Positions 1-45,308 of a stretch of DNA of 64,000 nt are shown piece by piece. Made by a program: the position numbers and the translations under genes. Location: the NCBI GenBank assembly GCA_965206745.1, contig OZ242220.1, positions 384,001 through 448,000 of the forward strand, in the 5' to 3' direction. This stretch comes from Nitrosopumilus sp. (GTDB taxonomy: Archaea; Thermoproteota; Nitrososphaeria; Nitrososphaerales; Nitrosopumilaceae). The notes beneath the pieces are model-generated. The model did no database searches. It saw only the letters and a program-made list of their open reading frames with translations, and was not told where the DNA came from. How positions within the stretch are numbered: position 1 is the first letter of the stretch; each line of letters opens with the position of its first letter.

Positions 1-110
1 GGGGATATGAGATAGCTGTGATTTTTTGGTCTCACAAAAAACCGCGTGGCTTTTGCTTAAAAGTATGGCAATCAAGAGGTAGAATTTGTTGGTACTAAAA
101 AAAGATGGTG

Positions 111-776
111 TCAGCACGCCATGTGCTGTACTGTTTTGGCTCTCCCAGATAGCATGTTGCAGATGGCAGCCATCGCGTGCACAGACACCATGATTGCAAG
201 GATTGTGTATGCTCCCCCGAGGAGGACTGATCCGATGCCAACTATTACGCCATACGATGCGGCATAGAGAATCCATGTCTTTTTCATCCCCACCCTCTTG
301 TACATGACGGAGATTATGACGTTGCGCTCCTGCCTTGGGAATCTCCCTGACCTTACTGTACTGATCACGTCAAATGAGAGGGCAGCCACATAGAGGGGTA
401 CCATGACGTGCAGTGCAATCGCATCCTGGAGCAGCACCAGCAGCGCTGCAAGCGCAACAGATGCCACTACTACATACAGTGTCCTGTCTAAAGAGAGGAC
501 TCCCAGCCCGACTGCAACCATGATCACCCCGACTATGGGGAACCAGAATGCAAGCAGCCCTACGAATCCCTTGCCGATGAGATGGAACTGCCCGATGATC
601 TTTGTCGCATTTTTTGTAGCGTCATCGCCGGCAATATCGGCATAGTCTGTGGTGTCGTTTGCCACCATCGTTGCAAGCGTTCCACCTATCACTGCAAGGA
701 TCAATCCGACTACAAACACCAGCCCCATCGCCTTTGAGGCCTCGCCTATGTCGGCCTTGCCGAGTTTCTCTAACAT
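111..776 (-). CDS. Multi-pass membrane protein; N-terminal hydrophobic hairpin (pilin/spindle-virus capsid-like), C-terminal DUF5658-like segment
   Basis: Two long hydrophobic helices flanking a polar linker with NDT/NAT sequons; D-x-x-S-T...E-R-N motif in the C-terminal half. Confidence 0.5.
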   Translation of the reverse strand: MLEKLGKADIGEASKAMGLVFVVGLILAVIGGTLATMVANDTTDYADIAGDDATKNATKIIGQFHLIGKGFVGLLAFWFPIVGVIMVAVGLGVLSLDRTLYVVVASVALAALLVLLQDAIALHVMVPLYVAALSFDVISTVRSGRFPRQERNVIISVMYKRVGMKKTWILYAASYGVIVGIGSVLLGGAYTILAIMVSVHAMAAICNMLSGRAKTVQHMAC

Positions 777-825
777 GGCAAATCGTATAAAATTCGGATT
801 TAAGTAAAATTATCTGATACATTCT

Positions 826-1329
826 GTGTTAATAATAGATCTCGTCAATGTCGTGGCACGTGCCAGGATTGCAAGGGTGGATGTGGCAGACATATCATGC
901 AGGGTGCCGTGCAACTATGTCCCCTCCAGGTTTGCAGCACTGGTGATTCCCATCAAAAAGTCAAAGATGGTACACGTCAACTTGTATTCTTGCACCATCA
1001 CATCCACCGGTGCAAACAGTACCGATGATGCGATATCTGCAATATGGGATGCAGTAGGGATCATCGAAGAGTCCGGAGAATACCTAAAGTTTCTTAAACC
1101 TCCAAGTATTAGCAGCATCACTGCCGTGGTATATCCGACAGACGAGAAAATGATACCTATAGTACCTGCAGACGCGCAGAAGGTGCCGTTCTTCTCCTCG
1201 CATTGCAAGATAAGGGATCCCCTTAACAATGCGACCCTGATGATTGCAAAGTCAGGCAGGGTGACGATAACAGGCGCCACCTCGCTTCATGATGTGATTG
1301 CAGCAGCCAAGAGGCTTTTTGGCATTTGA
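826..1329 (+). CDS. Divergent TATA-box-binding protein (TBP) homolog
   Basis: Two TBP-like repeats: VNVVA...YVPSRFAALV...TITSTGANSTDDAISAI and ...ATLMIAKSGRVTITGATSLHDVIAAAKRL, compared with canonical ENIVA...YEPEQFPGL...LIFSSGKIVCTGAKS; 167 aa. Confidence 0.8.
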   Translation: MLIIDLVNVVARARIARVDVADISCRVPCNYVPSRFAALVIPIKKSKMVHVNLYSCTITSTGANSTDDAISAIWDAVGIIEESGEYLKFLKPPSISSITAVVYPTDEKMIPIVPADAQKVPFFSSHCKIRDPLNNATLMIAKSGRVTITGATSLHDVIAAAKRLFGI

Positions 1330-1436
1330 TGTGTCTAATTCAAAGGCATCATGCTGATGCGAGACGAGTGATTCATCAACAGTACATTACAGGTGGAACT
1401 GACGACCCTTAACCCTGTTTTTTACTGCATGGTACA

Positions 1437-1838
1437 ATGCTGCTTGCAAACGAGAGCCTCCTGATGACGGTGGCATTTGTAGGACTTGCCGGAGTAATTG
1501 TCGTAATAATTGGAGACGACTATGGGGATACCATCCAGGCAATTAACAGCATGTCGGACTCTAGAAGTGCCGGGATTGCAGAATCAGTCGGCGTGCTTGA
1601 CGTGCAGAAGGGGGGTGACATAGCATACATCATACTCTCAAACCATTCCGAGGATGCAGTAATGCTCATCGGCTTTTGGGACGAGGACGGCGATGAGCTA
1701 GTATGCAGTGATTCGGGGGGCATGTTGGATGGGCTGCAGATACCTGCAGGTGGGACTGTCACGATATCATGTGCCATCAGCGGCACACACGTCATAGTCT
1801 CGACTGCAAACTATAACCTCATCCGCATCAAAACATGA
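1437..1838 (+). CDS. Archaeal type IV pilin-like protein
   Basis: N-terminal hydrophobic helix then beta-rich domain with ILSN, IPAGGTVTI and VSTANYN patterns typical of archaeal pilins. Confidence 0.55.
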   Translation: MLLANESLLMTVAFVGLAGVIVVIIGDDYGDTIQAINSMSDSRSAGIAESVGVLDVQKGGDIAYIILSNHSEDAVMLIGFWDEDGDELVCSDSGGMLDGLQIPAGGTVTISCAISGTHVIVSTANYNLIRIKT

Positions 1839-1955
1839 ATCAACATGACTCATCCGTTCTAATTGGGATGCCGCAGTTTAGAATCTGCCTCTGGCATCAC
1901 GATTCCCTGTACCCCAGTCCCCTCCCCTTTTATTCAAAAGAACCATGTCCTGCCA

Positions 1956-2444
1956 ATGGATTCAAAACCGATTGCCATAATACTTGGCATCGTCATCACT
2001 GTAGGCGCAATGGGCGCTGCCACAGTATATGCTGGAAACATCTTTTCTGGGACCAGCACCAGCACCGACCTGATTCCAAAGACAGTCGAGATCTTTTCAA
2101 TCGACAAGGATCACCTTGAGGCAAACGTCCAGCTTACAAATCAGGGAACAGGAACGCTGCAGAACATCAGGGGACAGGTGGAGGTCAACGGGCTGACAAA
2201 CCACACGCTGACTGTCAAGACATCCAGTGTGGGGCCATACAAGACCCTCGTGCTCTCCGGACCCATAAGGGACATAGAGTCGGCAGGAGCTACGGGCAAA
2301 GGCACGCTCATTGGAACTGCCACCTCACAGGACCAGGCAAGCCAGTGGGACATGTATCCTGGCCAGAGCGTGCTGCTAAGAATCACGGCAGAGACGACAT
2401 CTGGCGACAGCATAGAGAAGCTCCATGAGATAACAGTGAGATAG
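1956..2444 (+). CDS. Archaeal type IV pilin-like protein
   Basis: MDSKPIAIILGIVITVGAMGAATVYAG resembles a pilin N-helix; LTNQGTG and PGQSVLLRITAETTSG motifs. Start reassigned to ATG 1956, with a TTTTATT box about 25 nt upstream. Confidence 0.65.
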   Translation: MDSKPIAIILGIVITVGAMGAATVYAGNIFSGTSTSTDLIPKTVEIFSIDKDHLEANVQLTNQGTGTLQNIRGQVEVNGLTNHTLTVKTSSVGPYKTLVLSGPIRDIESAGATGKGTLIGTATSQDQASQWDMYPGQSVLLRITAETTSGDSIEKLHEITVR

Positions 2445-2458
2445 GCCCGGTCTCCAAC

Positions 2459-2472
2459 CCCCATTTTTTTTT
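2459..2472 (+). terminator. Archaeal oligo-T terminator after the pilin-like gene
   Basis: T9 run about 20 nt downstream of the stop codon. Confidence 0.45.
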
Positions 2473-2518
2473 AAAATCCCTGCCAGTCTCCTTTAATGTA
2501 AAAGGGATACCGTGCTTT

Positions 2519-3139
2519 GTGACGTTTGAAAAGTATTTTGTGGCAATAAGACACGAGTCCGAACTGATGACCCCGCTTGTGGAGAGTCCGCTTATGAACT
2601 TCAGCCTCAGGGAGATTGGATACCTCGGGGTCTTTGGACTCTCGGCAGTCTTTGCAGCAATCGGCTCGATACCGTCATTTTCTACTATCTTTACGTTCCC
2701 CCTCCTTGTCCTGGCACTGTTCAGGTGGCACGGGGAGATCCCCGAGATGTACCTGTACTTTATGGCAATGCCGTTCTTTGAGCCATCAAAAAAGAAGAGA
2801 CGCAAGGCAAAGCACCCGAGGTCGGAGGTTTCAGGGTATGGGGAGAGAATGCCCATTACGGGGGAGCAGGCAGTACGTGAGAGGATACAGAAGGTAAGGT
2901 TCTCCGATGAGATGACGCCCCTTGATATGACCCTTGAGATCGGAGGATCCCACGTACATGAGACAGTATCTGTATTCATCGATGATAGAAAGATAGTCTG
3001 CGACAGCACAAACGGGGCAGGCCAGATTGTAGTCAGCGTCATGCCGCAGAGGGGGCAGAGGCGGCTATCAATCAGAGACAGAGACGGCCACATCCTAATC
3101 TCAAAGACAGTACAGTTTGAGGGGGCAGGGCGCCAGTAG
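2519..3139 (+). CDS. PrgI/VirB3-like membrane protein
   Basis: FSLREIGYL followed by two TM helices and G-x-x-P-E; overlaps the start of the VirB6-like gene. Confidence 0.55.
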   Translation: MTFEKYFVAIRHESELMTPLVESPLMNFSLREIGYLGVFGLSAVFAAIGSIPSFSTIFTFPLLVLALFRWHGEIPEMYLYFMAMPFFEPSKKKRRKAKHPRSEVSGYGERMPITGEQAVRERIQKVRFSDEMTPLDMTLEIGGSHVHETVSVFIDDRKIVCDSTNGAGQIVVSVMPQRGQRRLSIRDRDGHILISKTVQFEGAGRQ

Positions 3140-4893
3140 TGAGGGATGCGTCGCAGAACAGAGTCCTGCGGTTTCTCTTTTCATACTCGGAGGCAGATCT
3201 TGGGATATCTGCTGTGATCCTGCTTGTCACCACAATAGGGATGACGGTAGCATTTATCATATTTGCAGCAGAGCAGACCAGACTGTTACAGCTGGAGTTT
3301 ATCAACGTGGGCTTTCACAATCCAAAGTTCTTTGAGGATGTCCGCGGCATTGCCGGATTCACCGAGGGCGCACTCTCGTACTCTGAGCCGACATCAAACT
3401 ATGTCACATACGAGCTGATGCGCCAGAACATATTTCCCATCGGTGCTATCCTTGTGTTTGTATACATCCTGATAAACGCGTGGGGCGAGGCATCTGGAAT
3501 ATTCAGGGGAGGTGCGACAAGGCAGATGTTCTTCAAGTTTCTGGGGGTGATGATACTGGTGATGGTCTTTGTTCCGGCATGGGATGTGGCAGCAGTAGGG
3601 ATAGAGAAATTCTCAATATCAATGCTAAACCCGATGTACTCCCATGATGCACAAGACAACTGCGTGGAGAGGCCAGATGCCGTACTGCTGCTGGTAGCAG
3701 AGCAGAACCAGAGGATACACCAGAGACTCGACCAGTCGACACTCGGATTCAATGACTGGGATATGTGCCATCCGCAGCTGAGAATCGCATACGTATACCA
3801 AAAGGCATTCTCCGGTGCGACAAGTGAGATTGACCAGAACGTGATAGGCTTTGAGAGGATACTGTCTGACTTTGCCAATCTGGGCGAGATAATCGGTTCG
3901 ACGATATTTCTTGGCATGACCAAGACCATGCTGCTCTTCTCTGTAACCCTGATAGGACTCATAGTAATGACCATCCGCGAGCTGCTCCTTGCACTGCTCA
4001 TATCGCTGCTGCCGATGTTCATACTGCTGGCATTTGTGCCAAAGGTCGGAGGCATCTTCTCAAGGCTGCTTGAAACCATTGTTCCGCTGCTGCTGATTCC
4101 TGTAATCACTGCTGCAGTCTTTCTGACGGGGGCAGGAATCCTCCTTGACATGGAGGACGAGTTTGTCCAGGCCAGGGCAGACGGCCATGAAAGGTTCACC
4201 TTCTGGATTGCCGCAATATCGCTACTGATTCTGGCAACTGGCATCCCGCTGCTGATGGCCCCGATACTCTCCGGCATTGCAAGTCAGGCCTCCTCAATGG
4301 TGGGTACTGCAGTACTGTCGGGGATAGTGGGGGCAATGAGTGTGGTGAAAGGCGGTGCTGCAGGAACCGCAGCAGGAATCAGGGGTGTCTCTGAATCCGG
4401 ATCCGGATTTATCAGCAGGGCAGGAATGGCCGGAGTGATAGGAGGACTGGGACATGGCACTGCAATGGGCGCCTCAGCGGGTCTGATGTCCGATGTGTCA
4501 ACAGGGGTATCGCACATGGCACCGGGCACCGGTCCTGCAGGCTCTCCGTTCTCGCAGCAGGGACGTGACTTTCTAAGGTTTGCAGGTACCGGTTCTGGGG
4601 GAGGATTTGATCCGCAGGAATCTGCAAGGCTGCGCGGCAACCTGGCAGTGGCACCTGACCCCGCAAGTGTCGTGCCTGCAATCCCTCCGATAGGCCAGGG
4701 CGGCAATTATGCCAGCATGCCTATTATACCGACAAACATCGGCTCGCCGGTACAGTATGCTGACACGACACCGAGAAGCAAGAGCGGGGAGGATGCGCTG
4801 CTTGATACCAATAGTCATATCCGGCCGATATTCAGGGAGAGGCCTGACCTGACAAATGCCGGAGACAAGAAAATCCTGAAAGGGGAAAAGTGA
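3139..4893 (+). CDS. VirB6/TrbL-like conjugative transfer membrane protein
   Basis: Multi-TM core with IRELLLALLISLLPMFILLAFVP motif followed by a Gly/Ala-rich tail, the TrbL/VirB6 architecture. Confidence 0.75.
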   Translation: MRDASQNRVLRFLFSYSEADLGISAVILLVTTIGMTVAFIIFAAEQTRLLQLEFINVGFHNPKFFEDVRGIAGFTEGALSYSEPTSNYVTYELMRQNIFPIGAILVFVYILINAWGEASGIFRGGATRQMFFKFLGVMILVMVFVPAWDVAAVGIEKFSISMLNPMYSHDAQDNCVERPDAVLLLVAEQNQRIHQRLDQSTLGFNDWDMCHPQLRIAYVYQKAFSGATSEIDQNVIGFERILSDFANLGEIIGSTIFLGMTKTMLLFSVTLIGLIVMTIRELLLALLISLLPMFILLAFVPKVGGIFSRLLETIVPLLLIPVITAAVFLTGAGILLDMEDEFVQARADGHERFTFWIAAISLLILATGIPLLMAPILSGIASQASSMVGTAVLSGIVGAMSVVKGGAAGTAAGIRGVSESGSGFISRAGMAGVIGGLGHGTAMGASAGLMSDVSTGVSHMAPGTGPAGSPFSQQGRDFLRFAGTGSGGGFDPQESARLRGNLAVAPDPASVVPAIPPIGQGGNYASMPIIPTNIGSPVQYADTTPRSKSGEDALLDTNSHIRPIFRERPDLTNAGDKKILKGEK

Positions 4894-4945
4894 TGTCTTG
4901 GATATGCAACTGCATGATGTGTCTTCACATCAGACCAGATGGCAA

Positions 4946-7135
4946 TCAGAGATGTTCCTTCTTTGTGATTGCAACATCATAGCTGGCAGTCTCTGCAAAT
5001 AACAGCCTCCTGATTCGCTCATTTAGTGGCAGGGGACTACCCCAAAACGAGTCACCTTCTGTCTGCAGGACAAACTCTTTCTCAGTTGCATATCCCAACG
5101 TACCTGCGTTTGTAATGACCAGGTCCGGCTCTACTGTCTCGTATCTTAGTGTCCTGTGCGTCCTCTTTTCATCTGCCATCTCCTTTGTAATGTTCTCATC
5201 ACTGATAGTGCACAGCAGAACCCACCATCCCCTCTTCTCGTTGTATACTGCCGGATACCCGTGCCTTATCCCCACTGCATCCTCTGAAAATACCGTTGCA
5301 CGATAGCCAAACTTTAGCTCGCATTTGTCAGGACCCATCACCTCCAAGCCGGCCTCTGAGATTCTAAAGTAGGGGTTTGTCGTAAACCACATGTGTCTTG
5401 ACTGGTCATGCCATGCATCAGCATAGGTGTCCTCCTCTGGAATCCCCTTCGGCTTGATGGCCCTCTCCAGCCTCGTCTTTGTGTTCTGTGACTCCATCTC
5501 TGCATCCCTTATCTCGTCGATGGCAGTCTTTTGGGAGCCAAAGTGTTCCCGCCGAAGCTCGAGTCTGCCCTCGTCGAGGCCCTCAATGACATGCTGCACC
5601 CACCCTCTGTCCGTGTGGTCAGTCCACTGGCTTGGTGGATTTGACTTGCACCATGTGTCATAGACGCGCCTTGCCCTCAGCTTTGCCTCCTGGCGTTGCT
5701 CCCGCTCAAAGGTCTTGGCGTACATTGGTCCGCTTTGGAACTTTTCAATATCCTCATATGCCGCATCCAGGGATGCAATGGCAGCAAGTATCAGGGAATA
5801 GTCCTTCTCTGATGCGATTCTTTTGGCCTCATCTGCACCCCATGGGCAGAATATCTCATCAGTCCATGCAAAGCTAAACCCGTCTGGAAGATCATCTAGT
5901 TCCTGTACTGTTATCTTTTCATTGATCTCCTTCTTGAACTGCTGCCACTCTACGAGGGACTGGGGTCTAAATGATTCAGGGACAGAACCGTTCCTTGCAA
6001 TCTCTTGTATGGTGTCAAATATGATGTACGGGTTGCAGCCATCCCTCACCCTCTGCGAATCCTCCTCCTGTAGGTTTTCAGTTACTATCTTCATGGCCTC
6101 TGCAAGCAGAGACTGATGCTCCATATTGTACTGCTCAAACCGCCTGCCGTACCGCAGTATGTCTTCTCTTATTTTTCTGTCCCTGCGTGTCAGGTCACCT
6201 GCAACCTCAAGTGGAATTCCTGTGCAGAGGCATGCAAGTACCACCCTTGCATCGCATTCCCCTATCTCCTTGGTGGTGGGACTGCCCCACCTTCTCTTTG
6301 CAAGTATTGCCAGATAGTCGTTGATGCGCTTGAAGGTGCCGTACTTGCCTGAATAGTATTGCGCATAGATCTCCTCTGGTGTCATCGAGCCGAACTCTTC
6401 TGTGTATGTTGCAAGTGTCCGTATCTCCTTTGCGCCCCCGTCTGAGTATGCCTTTGCTATACTAGTACAGACAGACTCTGCAGGCTCTGATTTTACCCTG
6501 ATCTCGATGCCGCGGTTTCTCCTCGATGACTCGTCATACCCATCCCTCCACGTCGGCTCAAAGTAGTGGATCCTCACTGTCCTGCCCCTGGAGTCATACG
6601 AGTCCAGAATATCCAGTGGCATCTCAAGACACAGCCCCCTATCAAACGTTACAAAGTATATTCCCAAATTAGTTATCAGCATCTGGCCCTTGCCAAACCT
6701 GCACTCCCCGTCATGGCGACTCATCAGGTGCTCACCTGCATGCATTGCCAAGTATCCCTCCATGTTTGGCCTGTTCTTTGGATGGTTCTTTTGTACTGCG
6801 ACAAGCAGCAGATTGGCAAGTCTTTTTGACTCTGTCCTCCCTGCTTTCCTCCTCTGCGTCCTGTCCGGAAATGATCTCCCCAAGTCCAGCCTAAAATCCT
6901 GATGGTATCTGCCATGGTACCTCCCCTGTTCTCCCTCCTTGGATTTTGGCGCCCTCCAGAATATCCTTACCGTGTCACGGGATACTGGAAATGCGCAGCG
7001 GATCACATCGAGATTGACTGTAAACACGTTCTTTTTATCATCATCAATCACAACCAGGGAGGAATCCTTGACGTAGAGCTCCTCGTTATCCCTGAGGTGT
7101 CCGCAGTACAGGGGCTGGCTGCTTGTCAGTACCAT
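4946..7135 (-). CDS. Hypothetical protein with two N-terminal PH/GRAM-like domains
   Basis: ELYVKDSSLVVI...FTVNLDVI and GQMLITNLGIYFV...LEMPLDIL match the PH-like G-x-L-x-I-T-N-x-R-I-x-F pattern; 729 aa. Confidence 0.55.
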   Translation of the reverse strand: MVLTSSQPLYCGHLRDNEELYVKDSSLVVIDDDKKNVFTVNLDVIRCAFPVSRDTVRIFWRAPKSKEGEQGRYHGRYHQDFRLDLGRSFPDRTQRRKAGRTESKRLANLLLVAVQKNHPKNRPNMEGYLAMHAGEHLMSRHDGECRFGKGQMLITNLGIYFVTFDRGLCLEMPLDILDSYDSRGRTVRIHYFEPTWRDGYDESSRRNRGIEIRVKSEPAESVCTSIAKAYSDGGAKEIRTLATYTEEFGSMTPEEIYAQYYSGKYGTFKRINDYLAILAKRRWGSPTTKEIGECDARVVLACLCTGIPLEVAGDLTRRDRKIREDILRYGRRFEQYNMEHQSLLAEAMKIVTENLQEEDSQRVRDGCNPYIIFDTIQEIARNGSVPESFRPQSLVEWQQFKKEINEKITVQELDDLPDGFSFAWTDEIFCPWGADEAKRIASEKDYSLILAAIASLDAAYEDIEKFQSGPMYAKTFEREQRQEAKLRARRVYDTWCKSNPPSQWTDHTDRGWVQHVIEGLDEGRLELRREHFGSQKTAIDEIRDAEMESQNTKTRLERAIKPKGIPEEDTYADAWHDQSRHMWFTTNPYFRISEAGLEVMGPDKCELKFGYRATVFSEDAVGIRHGYPAVYNEKRGWWVLLCTISDENITKEMADEKRTHRTLRYETVEPDLVITNAGTLGYATEKEFVLQTEGDSFWGSPLPLNERIRRLLFAETASYDVAITKKEHL

Positions 7136-7363
7136 GATTATGGTGTGCGGTGACTATTCTTTTTAAAGAAACAATCCCGTCTGGCAGAAATCAGTCCCTC
7201 AATAATCTCACATGATACACCTTGATTCGTGTACGACATCTTTGTGTAACATGTGCCAGCACGGATAAAAAAATATGCAAGTGATCCTTTCCCTACCAAG
7301 TGATGCACATGTGGCAGTAGTTGCTAAATGAGAAAATATATTGTATATCTCTATGATCCTTTT

Positions 7364-7699
7364 ATGGTTTTGAATCTAAAGAAGACTCTATTATTTACAT
7401 TAATGCCGCTTCAGGGAATCTTGTTGATATTGATAGGAGATGGAATAGCCCGCATCAGAGTACCTGATGAGATTGATCCTGTTTTTCAAATCTGGGTTTT
7501 TTTCAACTATGTCCCCTTGCTTGTTTCACGTCTAGCGTGGGCGCCATTTATTTTACAAGAGGACTGGCGTCAGTATGCGGATCCTGTGATTCTAATGTGG
7601 ATTGTAGGATCAAACCTGTTATTCTGGCTCCCAATCACGCATGTCTTGTATAACAAATTTCTCAAACCAAAGGACGTTGGGAATCCTAAGCCTGTCTGA
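7364..7699 (+). CDS. Small membrane protein, unknown function
   Basis: Three hydrophobic segments; ATG 7364 preferred because of an AT-rich box about 25 nt upstream. Confidence 0.55.
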   Translation: MVLNLKKTLLFTLMPLQGILLILIGDGIARIRVPDEIDPVFQIWVFFNYVPLLVSRLAWAPFILQEDWRQYADPVILMWIVGSNLLFWLPITHVLYNKFLKPKDVGNPKPV

Positions 7700-7768
7700 C
7701 TGTTTGGAGTGTATAGAGATGAGCCGGGAATATCTCCTGGCAATTACTCATGGTATCTAATGATGTTT

Positions 7769-7843
7769 TGGTGGACCGGGAGGGAATCGCACCCTCGACC
7801 TCCTCGTTGCGAACGAGGGATTATGCTCCTAAACCACCGGCCC
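7769..7843 (-). tRNA. tRNA-Ala(CGC), CCA encoded, atypical T and D loops
   Basis: Acceptor GGGCCGG/CCGGTCC with G3:U70; anticodon arm CCTCG-TT-CGC-AA-CGAGG; T arm GAGGG-TGCGATT-CCCTC. Confidence 0.9.
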
Positions 7844-7918: not shown

Positions 7919-9331
7919 ATGACATATGACACTATAATTACAGACTCGCACGTAATGCTCCCCCGGGGACTAGTTGAGAGAAACATCCTAATTGATGAGG
8001 GAAGAATAGTAGGACTCACCACTGATACGCCTGCATGTGATAACAGGATTGACGGTGCAGGCCTAGTCTCAGTTCCGGGGCCAATTGACACGCATGTCCA
8101 TTACGGCGTATACTCTCCAATCAACAAGGCTGCACAGACCGAGTCCCATGCAGCGGCAATAGGCGGAATCACAACAATGATGCGAATGCTCCGGCTAGGC
8201 GATCCGTTCTCAGACTCCCTGCAGTCCCAGCTTGACTCCTCTGCCAAAAACCACTATGTCGACTATGCAGTACATGCATCCATCTTTACACCGCAGCAGA
8301 TAGACGAGATGGACCACTGCGTTGAGAGGGGGGTCACCTCTTTTAAGATCTACATGAACCTCGGTGGTGATGTTGGACACGTCTACATGGACATGCCGCC
8401 TGACTCTACAAATTTGGTCGAGGCACAGGTCAACGTCACTGATGAGCTAGTTGAGCAGACAGTAAGGGCTGCAGCCAAGCTTGGCTGTCCAGTACTGGTC
8501 CATGCAGAAGACTATGAGTCGTGCGGCTGCGGAATAAAGACTGCAAAGGAGAAGAACCAGGACGGGCTGGCTGCATGGTCCTCTAGCCGCTCCCCCGAGT
8601 CTGAGGCCAAGTCCATCAGGACGATCTCACGGTTTGGCAGGGACCATGACTGTGTCATTTATTTTGTTCATATTGGTTCAAAGCGCGCACTGGAACAGAT
8701 TCAAGAGGAGAAGAGACTCGGAACCAAGATCTTTGTGGAGACCTGCCCCCACTATCTCACACTATCCCATGAGAGCCAGTCAGGCTACCTTGCCAAGGTC
8801 ATGCCTCCAATCAGGACTGAAGATGACAGAAGGGCAGTGTGGAGTGCCCTCTCAAACAACCAGATTGATACCATCGGCACTGATCACGTTGCAAACCGGC
8901 TGAAGCTCAAGCTGGACGGCCTCAACGTGTGGAGTGCGCTTGCGGGATTTCCTGGAATAGGTACTGCGATCCCAATCCTGCTCAATGACGGGGTCAACCA
9001 AAAGAGGATCTCACTTGAGCAGTTTGTCCAGTTTACCAGTACTAATGCGGCCCGAATATTTGGAATGCATCCTCAAAAAGGCACACTTGAGAAGGGCTCT
9101 GATGCAGACATTGTAATGCTGGATCTCAAAAAGGAAAAGACTGTAACCTCTGATCTGTTTGGAGGGTTCTCAGACTATGTCGTGTACGAGGGAAGAGAAC
9201 TGAAGGGATGGCCTGTAAAGACTATGGTCAGGGGGGAGCTTGTTGCCGAGGACTTTGAAGTCATTGGACGACTGGGCCATGGCAGGCTAGTCAAGAGGGA
9301 GCAGCCCGCTCAGAACCTGAATTTCAAATGA
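7919..9331 (+). CDS. Dihydroorotase/hydantoinase-family cyclic amidohydrolase
   Basis: DTHVH metal motif, SFKIYM carbamylated Lys, HAED, ETCPHYL, GTDH. Confidence 0.9.
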   Translation: MTYDTIITDSHVMLPRGLVERNILIDEGRIVGLTTDTPACDNRIDGAGLVSVPGPIDTHVHYGVYSPINKAAQTESHAAAIGGITTMMRMLRLGDPFSDSLQSQLDSSAKNHYVDYAVHASIFTPQQIDEMDHCVERGVTSFKIYMNLGGDVGHVYMDMPPDSTNLVEAQVNVTDELVEQTVRAAAKLGCPVLVHAEDYESCGCGIKTAKEKNQDGLAAWSSSRSPESEAKSIRTISRFGRDHDCVIYFVHIGSKRALEQIQEEKRLGTKIFVETCPHYLTLSHESQSGYLAKVMPPIRTEDDRRAVWSALSNNQIDTIGTDHVANRLKLKLDGLNVWSALAGFPGIGTAIPILLNDGVNQKRISLEQFVQFTSTNAARIFGMHPQKGTLEKGSDADIVMLDLKKEKTVTSDLFGGFSDYVVYEGRELKGWPVKTMVRGELVAEDFEVIGRLGHGRLVKREQPAQNLNFK

Positions 9332-32465: not shown

Positions 32466-33125
32466 CTAAAGCGAGTTGACATACTTGCGCAGTTTCTCTG
32501 TCTTTTCCTCGACTGACAGGGGCAGCAGGTCCTTCATCATCTGCTTTAACTCCATCCTCTTGGCATCTCTCCCATCAGAACCGTCCTCTAGCTGCGTCTT
32601 CATTGACATAAAGTGCATTATCATCCTTGCCCGCTCATCAATGGATAGTGCAAAAAATGCATCCTTTACCTCACCCCACTGCTTCATTTTGAGCTCTCGC
32701 TCCTGCGGAGTCAGGTCGGCATGGTGGCCTCTCCATTTTCCGGACTTGTCTGAATGCTTCCAGCTGTTCTTGGGGATGCCGTCTGAAACATGCAAAACAG
32801 TACCATCCCCTGCATCAATAATCACCTTGTAAAACAAGTCGTTACCAGACAGTAATCCGACCTTGTATACCAGGTACCCTTGAATCACCTTTAACTTGCC
32901 CCACATTGCATCAGAATCATCAACTGAATCCTGCGCAGCTGTCATGGCATCAGATAAAGTGATCTGCTCAAGACCCTGATAGTCAGAGTCAGTCACTGTC
33001 ATGCTTCCGGAGATCTCTGGAATTTTGTAACTGCCATACTCTGCAAGAACATCAGACGGTGAAAGTGACATAATTGCAAATATTGATGCTGCGATGATTG
33101 CAGGTATGATGATCTTCTTTTTCAA
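32466..33125 (-). CDS. Secreted PepSY-domain protein
   Basis: Signal peptide; ITLSDAMTAA...LVYKV...VIIDAGDGTVL. Confidence 0.8.
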   Translation of the reverse strand: MKKKIIIPAIIAASIFAIMSLSPSDVLAEYGSYKIPEISGSMTVTDSDYQGLEQITLSDAMTAAQDSVDDSDAMWGKLKVIQGYLVYKVGLLSGNDLFYKVIIDAGDGTVLHVSDGIPKNSWKHSDKSGKWRGHHADLTPQERELKMKQWGEVKDAFFALSIDERARMIMHFMSMKTQLEDGSDGRDAKRMELKQMMKDLLPLSVEEKTEKLRKYVNSL

Positions 33126-34511: not shown

Positions 34512-35581
34512 CCTATGGATTTAATATCTTTGAGCAATTGCCCAAATTCCTTATGTAATTCTTTAAAATCTTTTAACTTGTTATTATCCTTGGCAATTTC
34601 TTGCATCTTACTTCTTGGAAAATTATGAATTAATTCATAGAGATCTTGAACTCGACTATCAACATTTTCAGAAAATGAACTCGTTAGAGATTTTCTTTGT
34701 TTCTGCCGCTTCATGATTTCTATGGCTTTTTCAATTGTTGCATTATTTTGCATGGCTTTGTATGCATCTTTGCTTTCTAAAATTATTTTATCTAATTTTC
34801 TCACATGTATGGCCATTGGAATTTTATTATTATATATCCAATCCATGAATTTTTCAAGATGTACCGGATCCTCTGTCCATTCTTTAAGGTCTCTCTTTTT
34901 ATATAATTCTAGAAAATGTGAAAATCGTTGCAACCATCGATCATCATCAGGATATTTTTTATGATATAATAATGTGGCATCATATGCTTTAACATTTTGA
35001 CTAATAGTATTTTTACCTATGCTTATTGCTTTTGCAACTTCTTCATAATCGTAATCATATTTTTTTATTAAATCATAAACATGAACACCTTTATTCAATG
35101 CTGCCCAATTTTTTTTCCCACTAACATGTATTCTGGCAAGAAACAATGCCACATCTGCATTACTTGTATCTTTGGGAAGTATGATACATTGTATTGGATC
35201 AATTTGATTGCTGGAAATATTTTTTTCTTTTCCAGAATTAATCTCCTCTATAATTTTTCTCATACATACTGTTCTTCGATTTCCTTCAATTACTGAATAT
35301 TGGGAATTGGAAATTTGACGTACGTATGGTTTTTCAGTCAATCCTTTTGAGAATTTTATTTCTCGAATCAAACTTTTTGTGTCTGTTTCTTGCCATATCC
35401 GATCTTCAATCTGCTCGTTTGTCATTGGTTCTGGAACATGCTTGAATCGAACATTTGTAGGATCAAGAACAAGTTGAGTTAAAGGTATGAATCTAATATC
35501 TGCCTCAATTCTCTCCTCTCCTGTTATGCTTAATTGGATTTTTGATGGGCTTACTGAATTTTTTGTAGTCTTTAGAGTCAC
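34508..35581 (-). CDS. ParB/Srx-fold protein with HTH
   Basis: LVLDPTNVRF...VIEGNRR nucleotide motif; YEEVAKAISIGKNTISQ HTH; GTGA overlap with the NTPase gene. Confidence 0.8.
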   Translation of the reverse strand: MTLKTTKNSVSPSKIQLSITGEERIEADIRFIPLTQLVLDPTNVRFKHVPEPMTNEQIEDRIWQETDTKSLIREIKFSKGLTEKPYVRQISNSQYSVIEGNRRTVCMRKIIEEINSGKEKNISSNQIDPIQCIILPKDTSNADVALFLARIHVSGKKNWAALNKGVHVYDLIKKYDYDYEEVAKAISIGKNTISQNVKAYDATLLYHKKYPDDDRWLQRFSHFLELYKKRDLKEWTEDPVHLEKFMDWIYNNKIPMAIHVRKLDKIILESKDAYKAMQNNATIEKAIEIMKRQKQRKSLTSSFSENVDSRVQDLYELIHNFPRSKMQEIAKDNNKLKDFKELHKEFGQLLKDIKSIG

Positions 35582-43203: not shown

Positions 43204-43947
43204 CTAAATCTGACTGATTCTTTTGTGAGCTATTTTATAGTTTTTTTCATCTTTTTCAAAACAAATGTATTTCCTGTTTAATTCTGTTGCCACTTTACAT
43301 ACTATGCCTTGTCCTGCAAATGGATCTAGAATAATGTCTTTTTCATACGTGAAAATCTGGATTAATCTTGCTATGATTTCATAGGGAATTCTATCTTGAA
43401 ATTCTGATTTCTTTTTAGGCTGCACAAACCATACTGAATCGTTCCACTCCGTTTTGACTTCACCATCAATATCTATTTTTGATATGCGCTCCTCACTGTC
43501 TACATACTCAAATTCAGAACCCTTTCTTTGAAATATATGAATGGTTGAAAATGGTGTATCTTCATAATTTATCAAAATCCCACTTTCCATAGGATTGATA
43601 CTTTCAGTTGATGATTTTGGACTTTTTACCCATATGATCTCTTCATGTTTCTCCCAATCCTCCAAATTCTTTGATTCCATCATCTGAAAAATATTTTTGG
43701 ACACCGAGGACATTGTCTGATTTGAATTCTTTTCTTCATCAAGAATTAAGCAACAAATTCCTCCGTTTTTTGTAACTTTGGCAATCTGTTTTATGATGAT
43801 TTGAAGTTTTGTCAAATATTCCTCATTCAAATCCTCACAAGTGATGTATGGTGGTTTAATTATTGAAAGAGTAATGTTTTTTTCATTATGCCATTTTGTA
43901 ATATTTTGACTATCATCACAAATTATTTGTTCAACTTTTGATTTCAT
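43204..43947 (-). CDS. Beta-class DNA methyltransferase homolog with degenerate catalytic motif
   Basis: IIKPPY in place of (D/S)PPY; IIWVK; LDPFAGQG SAM motif; ATGA overlap with upstream MTase. Confidence 0.8.
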   Translation of the reverse strand: MKSKVEQIICDDSQNITKWHNEKNITLSIIKPPYITCEDLNEEYLTKLQIIIKQIAKVTKNGGICCLILDEEKNSNQTMSSVSKNIFQMMESKNLEDWEKHEEIIWVKSPKSSTESINPMESGILINYEDTPFSTIHIFQRKGSEFEYVDSEERISKIDIDGEVKTEWNDSVWFVQPKKKSEFQDRIPYEIIARLIQIFTYEKDIILDPFAGQGIVCKVATELNRKYICFEKDEKNYKIAHKRISQI

Positions 43948-45308
43948 TTGGTATTTTTCTTTGCTCTAGTCTTTATTTTAGTTTTTACGGTTAGTTTCAA
44001 TTTGATTCCTGTTTTCTGATATAATTCAGCCATGCGTTTTTTTCTACCTGTTTTTTCAATTTTCTTTTCATAAAGAAGAATATCAATAATTGCTTTTACC
44101 GGTTGTCTATTTTCAACTAGTCTTTCTGGTAAAATTGTATTCAAACTTGCTTTATGAAATTCACTATTTGGTAATTTTTTCAATGCAGTGCCCAAATGTG
44201 ATTTAGGATCTTTGATATTTCCTAAATTTATTCGTGTGGTTAGTTTCATATCTCTTCCCATTATATAACATATGTAATTCCCTGTGTTGTTTTTGTAATA
44301 GACGTAAGTACTTTTGAATCCTCTTATTTCTTTTTCAGAGACTTCTTTGAATTTGAATTTATAACCTTTTGGAACTTTTGGAACATCAAGATGTACATCA
44401 TCTTTCTTGCCTGATTCTTCTGCATCAGTCCACTCAATTGGATGATAAACTGGAATCATAAAATTTGATGATGTGAATTTTTCATCTAGTCTTTTTTTTG
44501 CTAATTCTACATATTGTTTTCTTAAATCCACTCCGATGAAATTTCTTTTTAGTAATTTTGCCATTTTTGTTGTCTGACCGCTTCCATTCATTGGATCTAG
44601 TACCGCGTCTCCTTTCTTTGAATATAGTTGGATTAGCCTCCATGGAATTTGCTCTGGAAATACTGCAGGATGTTTAACCACTCTCGGCGGGACAGGCGTA
44701 ATATCCCAAATGGATAGTGATACCTGTCTTTTCATAGCCCTGTTTAATGGAATTGTTTCGGTATTTCTTCTATCAAATATCTCTTTCTCTCCTCCCTTTT
44801 CTAACACTATGATGTATTCATGCATGATATTTGATCTATAGTATGTTGGATAGGAATACTGTACAAAAATGCCAAATCTATTTCCTGCTCCATTTCTTCC
44901 TGCAGTCACTTTATTCCAAATTATGGTGTCTCGTAAATGCCATCCCAATTCATTTTCTTCTTCTTTGATTAGTCTTGATATCAACAAACTTGACAGTGGT
45001 ATTAATTTTCCATTTGAAACTTCATCACCAATTACAATACAGCAGAATCCTCCCGGTTTGGTCACTTTTAATACTTCGGAAAATATTTGCTCCATTTCAT
45101 CCAAGTATTTCTTAGTGGTAGTTCCACCATTTCCACGAAATGATGCTTTTTGAGAATTTTTTTCATTTTTTACGTGCTGTGAATAGTTTATTGCGTTTCC
45201 ATAAGGTGGTGAAGTGATAGTTAGAGAAATACTATTTGGCTTGATAAATTTGGATAGTTCTTTGCTATTTGCATTAATGATGTCATTTACTATGAATTTT
45301 TTTGCCAT
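43944..45308 (-). CDS. Beta-class N4-C/N6-A DNA methyltransferase with extra C-terminal domain
   Basis: TSPPY, IIWNK, HPAVFP, LDPMNGSG. Confidence 0.9.
   Translation of the reverse strand: MAKKFIVNDIINANSKELSKFIKPNSISLTITSPPYGNAINYSQHVKNEKNSQKASFRGNGGTTTKKYLDEMEQIFSEVLKVTKPGGFCCIVIGDEVSNGKLIPLSSLLISRLIKEEENELGWHLRDTIIWNKVTAGRNGAGNRFGIFVQYSYPTYYRSNIMHEYIIVLEKGGEKEIFDRRNTETIPLNRAMKRQVSLSIWDITPVPPRVVKHPAVFPEQIPWRLIQLYSKKGDAVLDPMNGSGQTTKMAKLLKRNFIGVDLRKQYVELAKKRLDEKFTSSNFMIPVYHPIEWTDAEESGKKDDVHLDVPKVPKGYKFKFKEVSEKEIRGFKSTYVYYKNNTGNYICYIMGRDMKLTTRINLGNIKDPKSHLGTALKKLPNSEFHKASLNTILPERLVENRQPVKAIIDILLYEKKIEKTGRKKRMAELYQKTGIKLKLTVKTKIKTRAKKNTK

Follow-up and report, generated by a model that had tools for sequence, protein, structure and literature searches.

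We analysed a 64,000-nt stretch of the chromosome of Nitrosopumilus sp., hereafter the window (C1:384001-448000 of genome G000, which is 1.86 Mb long, in two contigs, 99.6% complete, with a GC content of 0.41). At the left end of the window, a run of accessory genes stops at a tRNA-Ala(CGC) gene. This run, block 1 (C1:381661-391768), comprises window positions 1-7768 and 2.3 kb upstream, and encodes a pilin-like protein, a VirB4-type ATPase, a polytopic membrane protein, a paralog of the TATA-binding protein (TBP), two further pilin-like proteins, a VirB3-like candidate, a VirB6/TrbL-like protein and a tandem-PH protein (Table 1). Block 1 is probably part of a conjugation module of the kind carried by thaumarchaeal integrative and conjugative elements (ICEs), a module that has been immobilised and dispersed over the chromosome and is ICE-derived and no longer self-mobile. 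The kit is a known type for thaumarchaeal ICEs, as these are presented in the available text of PMC6563490 and PMC5797428, with the exception of the TBP paralog. New here are the recurrent TBP paralog and the dispersal of the module with retention of its genes; in its basic class, the module is a relative of the published thaumarchaeal ICEs.

The tRNA genes were called by ARAGORN, protein families were assigned with Pfam, NCBIfam and PHROGs, and folds were examined with AF2, Foldseek and VIA. The minus-strand sequence of tRNA-Ala(CGC) ends in an encoded CCA, so that its 3′ end faces the gene run. The tRNA gene and an amidohydrolase gene (7919-9331) are neighbours in all five same-genus genomes compared, and in all five the nucleotide homology to the window ends at 7770-7772. 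In four of these relatives (G012, G007, G002 and G009), the tRNA 3′ flank consists of core genes, beginning with a conserved open reading frame (ORF) of 119-168 aa, with further core genes beyond. The stop of homology, taken together with the core genes in the flank of the relatives, clearly indicates that the gene run is accessory and that the break lies exactly at the tRNA end. This bears out a preliminary description, made from the DNA sequence alone, which had reported a run of non-core genes ending at the encoded CCA. The GC content of the run (0.46-0.53) equals that of nearby core genes and, being uninformative, was rejected as an island marker.

In the fifth relative, G018, the tRNA-Ala(CGC) 3′ flank carries unrelated giant ORFs instead (1318 and 2088 aa, without a G000 homolog, at C1:699000-714000, locus L018). 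The flank is variable in at least two lineages and is a recurrent site of insertion or rearrangement. In G000, the orthologs of the flank genes of the relatives were found at C1:1724489-1755919 (1.7245 Mb). The comparison with an empty site that the preliminary description had proposed thus came out in part: the tRNA 3′ end is joined to core genes in four of the five relatives, but beyond block 1 the ancestral flank does not resume, which points to an insertion with later rearrangement and not to a clean insertion.

The presence of VirB4 upstream of the window, proposed as a check in the same description, was confirmed, the gene lying directly upstream. Its product matches the Pfam families P-loop_TraG (3.3e-11), AAA_10 and DUF87, and the NCBIfam models conju_CD1110 (3.2e-30), TraC and VirB4_CagE (range 3e-30 to 2e-18, all below the equivalog cut-offs). 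The best full-length matches in PLSDB are encoded by a Thermococcus nautili plasmid and by Sulfolobus pNOB8-type conjugative plasmids (20-25% identity, 85-98% coverage). Judged by these matches, the VirB4 assignment is solid. Beyond the left edge of the window the run continues for about 2.3 kb, a stretch that holds VirB4 and a third pilin-like ORF (123 aa). The 20 kb upstream of the window (locus L002) contains sdhABCD, an Fe-S assembly gene and argH, then a giant adhesin gene, the 123-aa ORF and VirB4; the core genes (argH, sdhABCD) start 11.6 kb upstream of the window, and only the adhesin gene stands between them and the module. The latter encodes a 2972-aa He_PIG/Big_9 protein (L002:8633-17551 = C1:372633-381551, just upstream of the window), whose C-terminal 330-900 residues share 50-82% identity with at least five other giant genes of the genome, and it was therefore treated as a member of a host gene family outside the element. 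The giant adhesin genes may be substrates for rearrangement or may act as mating adhesins.

The second T4SS (type IV secretion system) component, the 584-aa polytopic membrane protein, is a putative VirB6/TrbL, an assignment that we regard as moderately supported. Among its database homologs, 3 of 33 carry PF04610 and 2 of 33 carry PF19590, and in the five loci of relatives that were examined, as in G162, a VirB4-like gene is no more than about 15 kb from the TrbL-like gene. The TrbL Pfam family was matched by none of five distant homologs from the genus, an AF2 model built from 6 sequences was unusable (pLDDT 42.6), and a PDB profile search with the TrbL-like alignment gave spurious membrane and ribosomal matches alone. 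The start of this gene is overlapped by 1 nt by the gene for a 206-aa protein, a homolog of which is found directly upstream of the TrbL-like gene also in G007, G009, G162 and G055. The sole family match of the 206-aa protein is a weak one to PF12666 PrgI (E 0.18, residues 23-83), and a PDB profile search with 3 homologs returned nothing relevant, only spurious membrane and ribosomal matches. Of the coupled PrgI/VirB3 and VirB6/TrbL pair described earlier, the coupling and its conservation stood, but the PrgI match was weak and the TrbL match sub-threshold. The broader claim of a conjugation-type (T4SS) module of mobile-element origin is upheld.

The module genes are patchily distributed. A VirB4-like gene is present in 11 of 41 sampled relatives (including G000) and in 7 of 24 within the genus, where identity does not exceed 31% save for an 85%-identical short fragment in G015; the TrbL-like gene was counted in 12 of 151 genus genomes. 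The genes are not syntenic in relatives; synteny throughout the related Nitrosopumilaceae would have spoken against the preliminary description. Neither a VirB4-like nor a TrbL-like gene was found in G012, an equally close relative. The G015 fragment (C133:3757-5658, locus L012, positions 1508-1749) is a 244-nt relic of the same VirB4 lineage with 81.6% nucleotide identity; it contains an internal TAG stop, has core genes beside it and lies near a contig end. It suggests decay of the element in another species of the genus.

The TBP assignment is solid as far as profile matches go, in agreement with the TBP homolog noted earlier. The genome has six TBP genes, the module copy being the weakest of them, with repeats scoring 27.8 and 21.2 bits vs. 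41.6-102. Its second repeat is degenerate, both repeats being visible in an alignment with the host TBPs. Identity of the module TBP is 23-27% with the three host TBPs of canonical type and 17-21% with the remaining two host paralogs; with the TBPs of the G007 and G009 elements, which have the same degenerate second repeat, it is 26-28%. In a genus-wide TBP search, the best four non-self matches (G154, G156, G145 and G007) lie 2-34 kb from the TrbL-like gene of their own genome. With G000 and G009, a TBP paralog is found within 35 kb of a TrbL-like gene in 6 of the 12 TrbL-positive genomes of the genus; the query found nothing in the other six, and the same query also missed G009. A search for related loci in genome contigs with the single module TBP protein gave no match. 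Two TBP homologs with 56-58% identity share long contigs with TrbL-like and 729-like homologs. There is no TBP gene in the corresponding slot of G162 and G055. A complex prediction for the TBP paralog with the TFIIB-like protein described below scored 0.00 (mark 0.32), which speaks neither for nor against such a pair. The element-borne basal factor reported for thaumarchaeal ICEs in the available text of PMC6563490 and PMC5797428 is TFIIB. Neither main text contains the term "TBP" (0 occurrences), and the supplement of PMC6563490 has it once, in a cargo-type element away from T4SS genes, to the extent that these sources were available; among the papers listed by a literature search, none had "TATA-binding protein". 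Relative to what is available of these two papers, a TBP gene beside T4SS genes is new.

Further parts of the module were found at two other chromosomal sites. Block 2 (C1:1713958-1724106, locus L024) consists of about ten ORFs and lies 1.32 Mb away, directly beside the ancestral tRNA-Ala flank genes. It contains a TFIIB-like gene, a gene for a 325-aa protein, a prepilin-peptidase-like gene, two unknown genes and a gene for a VirD4/TraD-like ATPase. The latter is the sole homolog of its kind, no VirD4/TraG-type ATPase being present within 20 kb upstream of the window or in window 1-7843; its homolog in G009 (33% identity) has TraG-D_C and T4SS-DNA_transf matches and an adjacent VirB4. The A24-type peptidase is a predicted one, recognised transitively through its homolog in G021. 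Block 3 (C1:~1540121-1553178) lies at the 3′ end of tRNA-Lys(TTT); to the right of this tRNA are genes for secreted proteins, a 617-aa platform-like protein with about 9 transmembrane (TM) segments, a T2SSE (FlaI/PilB-type) ATPase (2.3e-26) and a 1919-aa protein. The tRNA-Lys(TTT) and tRNA-Asp genes stand beside argH in relatives and at 1.539 Mb in G000.

Comparison with relatives links the three blocks. In G162, block 1 has the gene order and orientation of G000 (VirB4 83.5%, TrbL-like 79%, 206-aa protein 58% and 729-aa protein 58% identity), and homologs of block 3 are directly attached on its VirB4 side. On contig C42 of G055, the block 2 operon comes immediately after block 3 genes. In G009, the VirB4-like and VirD4-like genes are adjacent, with 729-like and TrbL-like genes beside them, and the TrbL-like gene and the membrane protein gene of G007 have a block 2 homolog between them. 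Since every pair of blocks is contiguous in some genome, we read the three as one gene set. In G000, the junctions argH|adhesin-123aa-VirB4 and tRNA-Lys|163-237-836 are the expected reciprocal products of an exchange between the argH|tRNA-Lys junction of relatives and a 231|123 junction of the G162 type. Similarly, tRNA-Ala today borders block 1, and the genes once next to it border block 2.

Table 1. Coordinates and properties of the features discussed (positions without prefix refer to the window)
Feature	Position	Strand	Remarks
Polytopic membrane protein, 221 aa	111-776	-	~4-6 hydrophobic segments; no Pfam match
Divergent TBP paralog, 167 aa, two repeats	826-1329	+	PF00352 2e-12, 47.2 bits, cut-off 22.9
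Pilin-like protein 1, 133 aa	1437-1838	+	hydrophobic helix at residues 8-26, then soluble domain
Pilin-like protein 2, 162 aa	1956-2444	+	from conserved Met at 1956; ORF opens at 1863
VirB3/PrgI-like candidate, 206 aa	2519-3139	+	two-TM hairpin at residues 33-68, C-terminal domain
VirB6/TrbL-like polytopic membrane protein, 584 aa	3139-4893	+	PF04610 E 6.5e-4, 20 bits, sub-threshold (cut-off 25.9)
Tandem-PH cytoplasmic protein, 729 aa	4946-7135	-	predicted PH-like domains and large unassigned C-terminal region
Small membrane ORF, 123 aa, gene status uncertain	7328-7699	+	2 hydrophobic segments; beside tRNA
tRNA-Ala(CGC)	7769-7843	-	ARAGORN; encoded CCA; right-hand boundary of block 1 at its 3′ end
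VirB4-type ATPase, 588 aa	L002:18227-19993	-	start codon 8 nt before window position 1
VirD4/TraD-like ATPase, 861 aa	C1:1713958-1716543 (L024:9359-11944)		AAA_10, DUF87, SXT_TraD 4.8e-8, CedD 1.2e-5
Prepilin-peptidase-like membrane protein, 214 aa	block 2		G021 homolog (3.4e-7) passes Peptidase_A24 (5.8e-6, 27.1 bits, cut-off 26.5)
TFIIB-like protein, 251 aa	L024:14763-15518	-	nearest Atlas clusters TFIIB (0.92, 185/256 features); conserved Cys4 motif CC...CxxC

We suggest that a single element inserted at a tRNA 3′ end, that its integrase and att sites disappeared later, and that two or more rearrangements of the chromosome then split it up. By homology alone, the T2SSE ATPase, the platform protein and the A24-type peptidase would process the pilin-like proteins and assemble them into a mating pilus; VirB4 would power a VirB6-type membrane channel to which the VirD4-like ATPase would feed DNA; and the TBP and TFIIB paralogs might direct the host RNA polymerase to promoters of the module.

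Among the other products of block 1, the 221-aa membrane protein is kept beside VirB4 in G162 (63% identity) and G055 (51%), and G007 has a weak homolog (phmmer 6.3e-4) ahead of its TBP-like gene. In G000, a spacer of 49 bp (777-825) separates the divergent 221-aa and TBP genes. The pilin-like architecture consists of an N-terminal hydrophobic helix and a domain of about 100 aa, the helix being present in three small module proteins. Pilin-like protein 1 has orthologs with a conserved N-terminus in G162 (50%) and G055 (40%). The N-terminus of pilin-like protein 2 is conserved from Met 1956 in G000, G162 and G055; the protein is 70% identical to its G162 ortholog and has a weak CARDB match (0.0034). 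The 123-aa ORF beside the tRNA has no family match and no homolog in the module loci of G162 or G055, and the GC content drops to 0.43-0.46 there. A PHROGs search with the window genes gave nothing, and the two ATPases returned generic ATPase matches alone.

The 729-aa protein gave a usable AF2 model (pLDDT 82, pTM 0.65), according to which its N-terminal 240 residues are predicted to form tandem PH-like domains. Foldseek matched the model to the double PH domains of FACT Spt16/Pob3 and Rtt106 (E 4e-5 to 1e-3), and VIA gave Z 12.0 and an rmsd of 2.3 over 88 residues for residues 139-237. Both fold searches were filled with PH-domain matches and so bear on the N-terminal part of the protein; the C-terminal ~480 residues are unassigned. 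The protein is encoded in the module of G162, G055 and G009, and none of its 13 database homologs has a Pfam match. A paralog (57%) is encoded at C1:893307-895466; its gene (region C1:891033-895505, L052:7033-11505) directly follows EF-2 and precedes a PD-(D/E)XK nuclease gene, with a GmrSD restriction gene near.

Several side observations concern the neighbourhood of the blocks and the rest of the window. Near its C-terminus, the VirD4-like protein repeats the peptide KPDDT about 11 times in perfect tandem, and four tandem serpin genes (PF00079, E ~1e-117 each; C1:1705932-1713590, L024:1332-8990) lie beside its block. At C1:1482662-1539207 (L023 and beyond), about 57 kb are taken up by giant repetitive ORFs, among them one of 6251 aa; this stretch separates tRNA-Asp(GTC), at its 3′ end, from the genes found after that tRNA in relatives, and is a further variable region beside a tRNA. 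A tRNA-Leu gene stands just upstream of the 206-aa/TrbL-like pair in two relatives: tRNA-Leu(TAA) inside block 1 of G162 (L047, C1:~1681983-1682072), and tRNA-Leu(AAG) in G007 (L027:13066-13137), where the element starts right after it. These could be integration sites or element-borne tRNAs. Between window positions 33000 and 46000 there are two low-GC stretches (0.28-0.37) with mostly unknown ORFs, which probably form an accessory island of their own; two N6/N4 DNA methylase genes lie side by side here, at 43204-43947(-) and 43944-45308(-), and a weak ParB_N match (E 0.05) at 35267-35413.

The preliminary description had taken the run for an ICE inserted at the tRNA, with an integrase, a relaxase and a direct repeat of the tRNA 3′ half to be looked for upstream. 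In the main, its observations were largely right and its interpretation half right. No relaxase was seen. No exact tRNA-derived repeat of at least 13 nt occurs within 150 kb upstream, and a genome-wide blastn-short search for a repeat of the tRNA 3′ half gave chance-level 11-13-mers alone. A single local match exceeded the shuffled range, at the tRNA-Asp downstream of argH, gapped over 28 columns and unconvincing. The whole G000 genome has no tyrosine recombinase match (PF00589, E <= 0.01; other integrase classes were not searched for), which speaks for an immobilised element. The control search was positive in 14 of 14 genomes, and PF00589 gave 1-16 matches in each of nine other genomes of the group; in G162, no PF00589 match lies inside the module blocks, the nearest being about 97 kb away.

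A number of results weigh against reading block 1 as part of an immobilised ICE. The integrase search covered tyrosine recombinases, and local alignments at all block boundaries stayed within the shuffled range, apart from the tRNA-Asp match, and revealed no att repeat in support of tRNA integration. Some component assignments are also vulnerable. The VirB6/TrbL match is below threshold, and the VirB3/PrgI call for the 206-aa protein is weak and rests mostly on context. The same holds for the "type IV pilin" assignment: class III signal peptides are cleaved at a [KR][GA] motif, and no canonical motif of this class was seen by eye in the pilin-like orthologs of G000, G162 and G055. Of the two type IV pilin-like genes announced in the preliminary description, the N-terminal hydrophobic helix was retained, but no pilin family of Pfam was matched. 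Pfam TFIIB and ParB_N, genome scans included, matched neither the TFIIB-like protein nor its downstream neighbour. The VirD4-like operon of G162 has the internal order of block 2 and lies at C1:95548-97980, far from the VirB4 block (~1.68 Mb), so that the separation may be old or the blocks may be independent. A one-step rearrangement model was rejected: the junctions are same-orientation reciprocal exchanges, for which a single inversion is insufficient, and the order of events was not reconstructed. What the data show is which genes are present, some more surely than others, that they are accessory, dispersed, intact and under purifying selection, and that an integrase match and att repeats are lacking; that the three blocks share one origin, how the events followed each other and whether the module is active today are matters of inference, and for the single origin this itself is a point against the reading. 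Finally, the module genes are intact and under purifying selection, which would fit a working domesticated system equally well.

The last point leads to a reading that we consider rather unlikely, in which the blocks would form a domesticated, chromosomally fixed DNA-exchange apparatus like the crenarchaeal Ced and Ted systems, acting in trans for the host and inherited vertically. None of the 14 module genes compared between G000 and G162 has an internal stop; the ratio of non-synonymous to synonymous substitution rates (dN/dS) is 0.056-0.24 for 6 of the 14, dS being saturated in the other 8, and 0.018-0.081 for five core control genes. The lack of a PF00589 match in the G000 genome and in the G162 blocks, together with the shared order of block 1, points the same way, as does the G000-G162 identity of VirB4 (84%) and the TrbL-like protein (79%), close to that of slower core genes (79-96%). 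The module also occurs in a second strain: contigs of run X3, from another study, carry VirB4, the membrane protein with TBP, the pilin-like genes, the TrbL-like gene and the 729-aa gene at 95-99% identity. There is a precedent as well, Ced and Ted being described in the available text of PMC9905601 as domesticated T4SSs made up of VirB4, VirB6 and a pilin. However, the patchiness within the genus, including the equally close G012, and the different chromosomal sites of the module in G000 and G162 do not suit a fixed host apparatus, nor do the restriction-modification genes near the module in G162 and the methylase, HNH and partition-like genes near that of G009. Furthermore, the VirB4-type ATPase scores only 37.9 bits (8.1e-10) with the CedB model NF041017, the cut-off being 700, and no VirB2-type pilin was recognised.

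An intact and potentially active ICE at tRNA-Ala(CGC), whose integrase and att site would lie farther upstream, is very improbable indeed, despite a boundary exactly at the tRNA 3′ end, a VirB4 gene upstream, a different insertion at the same flank in G018, and the fact that thaumarchaeal ICEs usually insert at tRNA 3′ ends, as stated in the available text of PMC5797428. Core genes begin 11.6 kb upstream with only the host-family adhesin in between, there is neither a PF00589 match nor a tRNA-derived repeat, and the VirD4-like, prepilin-peptidase-like and TFIIB-like genes are 1.32 Mb away. Contigs of run X1, which may come from the source sample, span the two ends of block 1 and show no differences there; no joint that leaves out the module is listed for the contigs of 4 runs, from which rare variants drop out, and the 4 listed joints in run contigs all lie inside the giant adhesin gene. 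Quite improbable, too, is a surface or secretion locus without DNA transfer, i.e., an adhesion apparatus resembling a type IV pilus, or a T4SS that secretes protein, connected with the giant adhesins. Such adhesin genes do flank the blocks both in G000 (2972 aa) and in G162, where giant Ig/He_PIG genes number three beside block 1 and one beside block 2, and the set includes pilin-like proteins, a prepilin-peptidase-like gene and a T2SSE ATPase. But a VirB4 and VirD4/TraD-like pair is a signature of conjugative DNA transfer in the available text of PMC6563490, the nearest plasmid-borne VirB4 homologs are on archaeal conjugative plasmids, and the giant-gene family has at least 5 further copies elsewhere in the genome.

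We therefore keep to an immobilised, dispersed ICE-derived module, and its kit can be set beside known systems. The kit published for thaumarchaeal ICEs comprises VirB4/VirD4, VirB6, VirB3, prepilin peptidase, pilins and TFIIB in the available text of Krupovic 2019 (PMC6563490). The module resembles these ICEs, as far as they are covered there, in its VirB4 and VirD4-like ATPases, VirB6-like protein, VirB3-like candidate, prepilin-peptidase-like and pilin-like proteins and FlaI-type ATPase, as well as in its divergent basal factor, the lack of a relaxase, the association with tRNA 3′ ends and a gene order that is not syntenic between elements. Contrary to the preliminary description, the kit is thus not unusual for this group; apart from TBP, its content is the same as in the published part. 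TFIIB upstream of a ParB-like gene is a feature of thaumarchaeal ICEs, and here the TFIIB-like protein was seen by Atlas and its Cys4 motif, with Pfam silent on it and its neighbour. Unlike the ICEs so described, which are one island of 40-65 kb, the module is spread over three chromosomal sites, has no integrase match or att repeats, carries TBP beside T4SS genes, and has a TFIIB-like protein too divergent for Pfam.

An integrase-less "immobilized" element, ICE-2 of Ca. Nitrosocaldus cavascurensis, has been published (Abby 2018, PMC5797428). Going by the available text, ICE-2 is similar to the module in that it is integrase-less with retained conjugation genes, and it was proposed to be vertically inherited; unlike the module, it is contiguous and flanked by 24-bp att repeats in a tRNA. 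With Ced and Ted, to the extent of the available text of Beltran et al. 2023 (PMC9905601), the module shares chromosomal VirB4-like and VirB6-like genes, small membrane or pilin proteins and the lack of an integrase. It differs from them in its VirD4-like ATPase, its type IV pilus-type parts, its own TBP and TFIIB-like genes and its patchiness within one genus; no VirB2-like pilin of the CedA1/TedC type was recognised in it, and it is related to CedB and CedD at the P-loop level only (20.5-24.2 bits with the CedD model, cut-off 600). The comparison with the Sulfolobus pNOB8-family and Thermococcus nautili plasmids covers VirB4; unlike the module, these plasmids are extrachromosomal replicons of hyperthermophiles.

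To our knowledge, conjugation-type DNA transfer in ammonia-oxidising archaea is known from genome annotation only. The locus shows that a full kit can survive intact, under purifying selection, after the loss of its integrase and a split into three sites. Integrase loss and dispersal with retention are the expected look of a mobile element on its way to a host-owned path of DNA exchange, as proposed for Ced and Ted. The sites of the blocks, at tRNA 3′ ends or their former neighbours and with giant adhesin paralogs, look like rearrangement hot spots that reshape these small genomes. Moreover, the recurrent TBP extends the known association of such elements with TFIIB and suggests that they bring both halves of the promoter-recognition pair. 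It is unlikely, and slightly more so than domestication as such, that the clade keeps a fixed hybrid T4SS/type IV pilus machine for DNA exchange, with three loci acting together and a dedicated TBP and TFIIB pair forming its own pre-initiation complex; if true, this machine would be a mesophilic counterpart of Ced and Ted with a private transcription apparatus.

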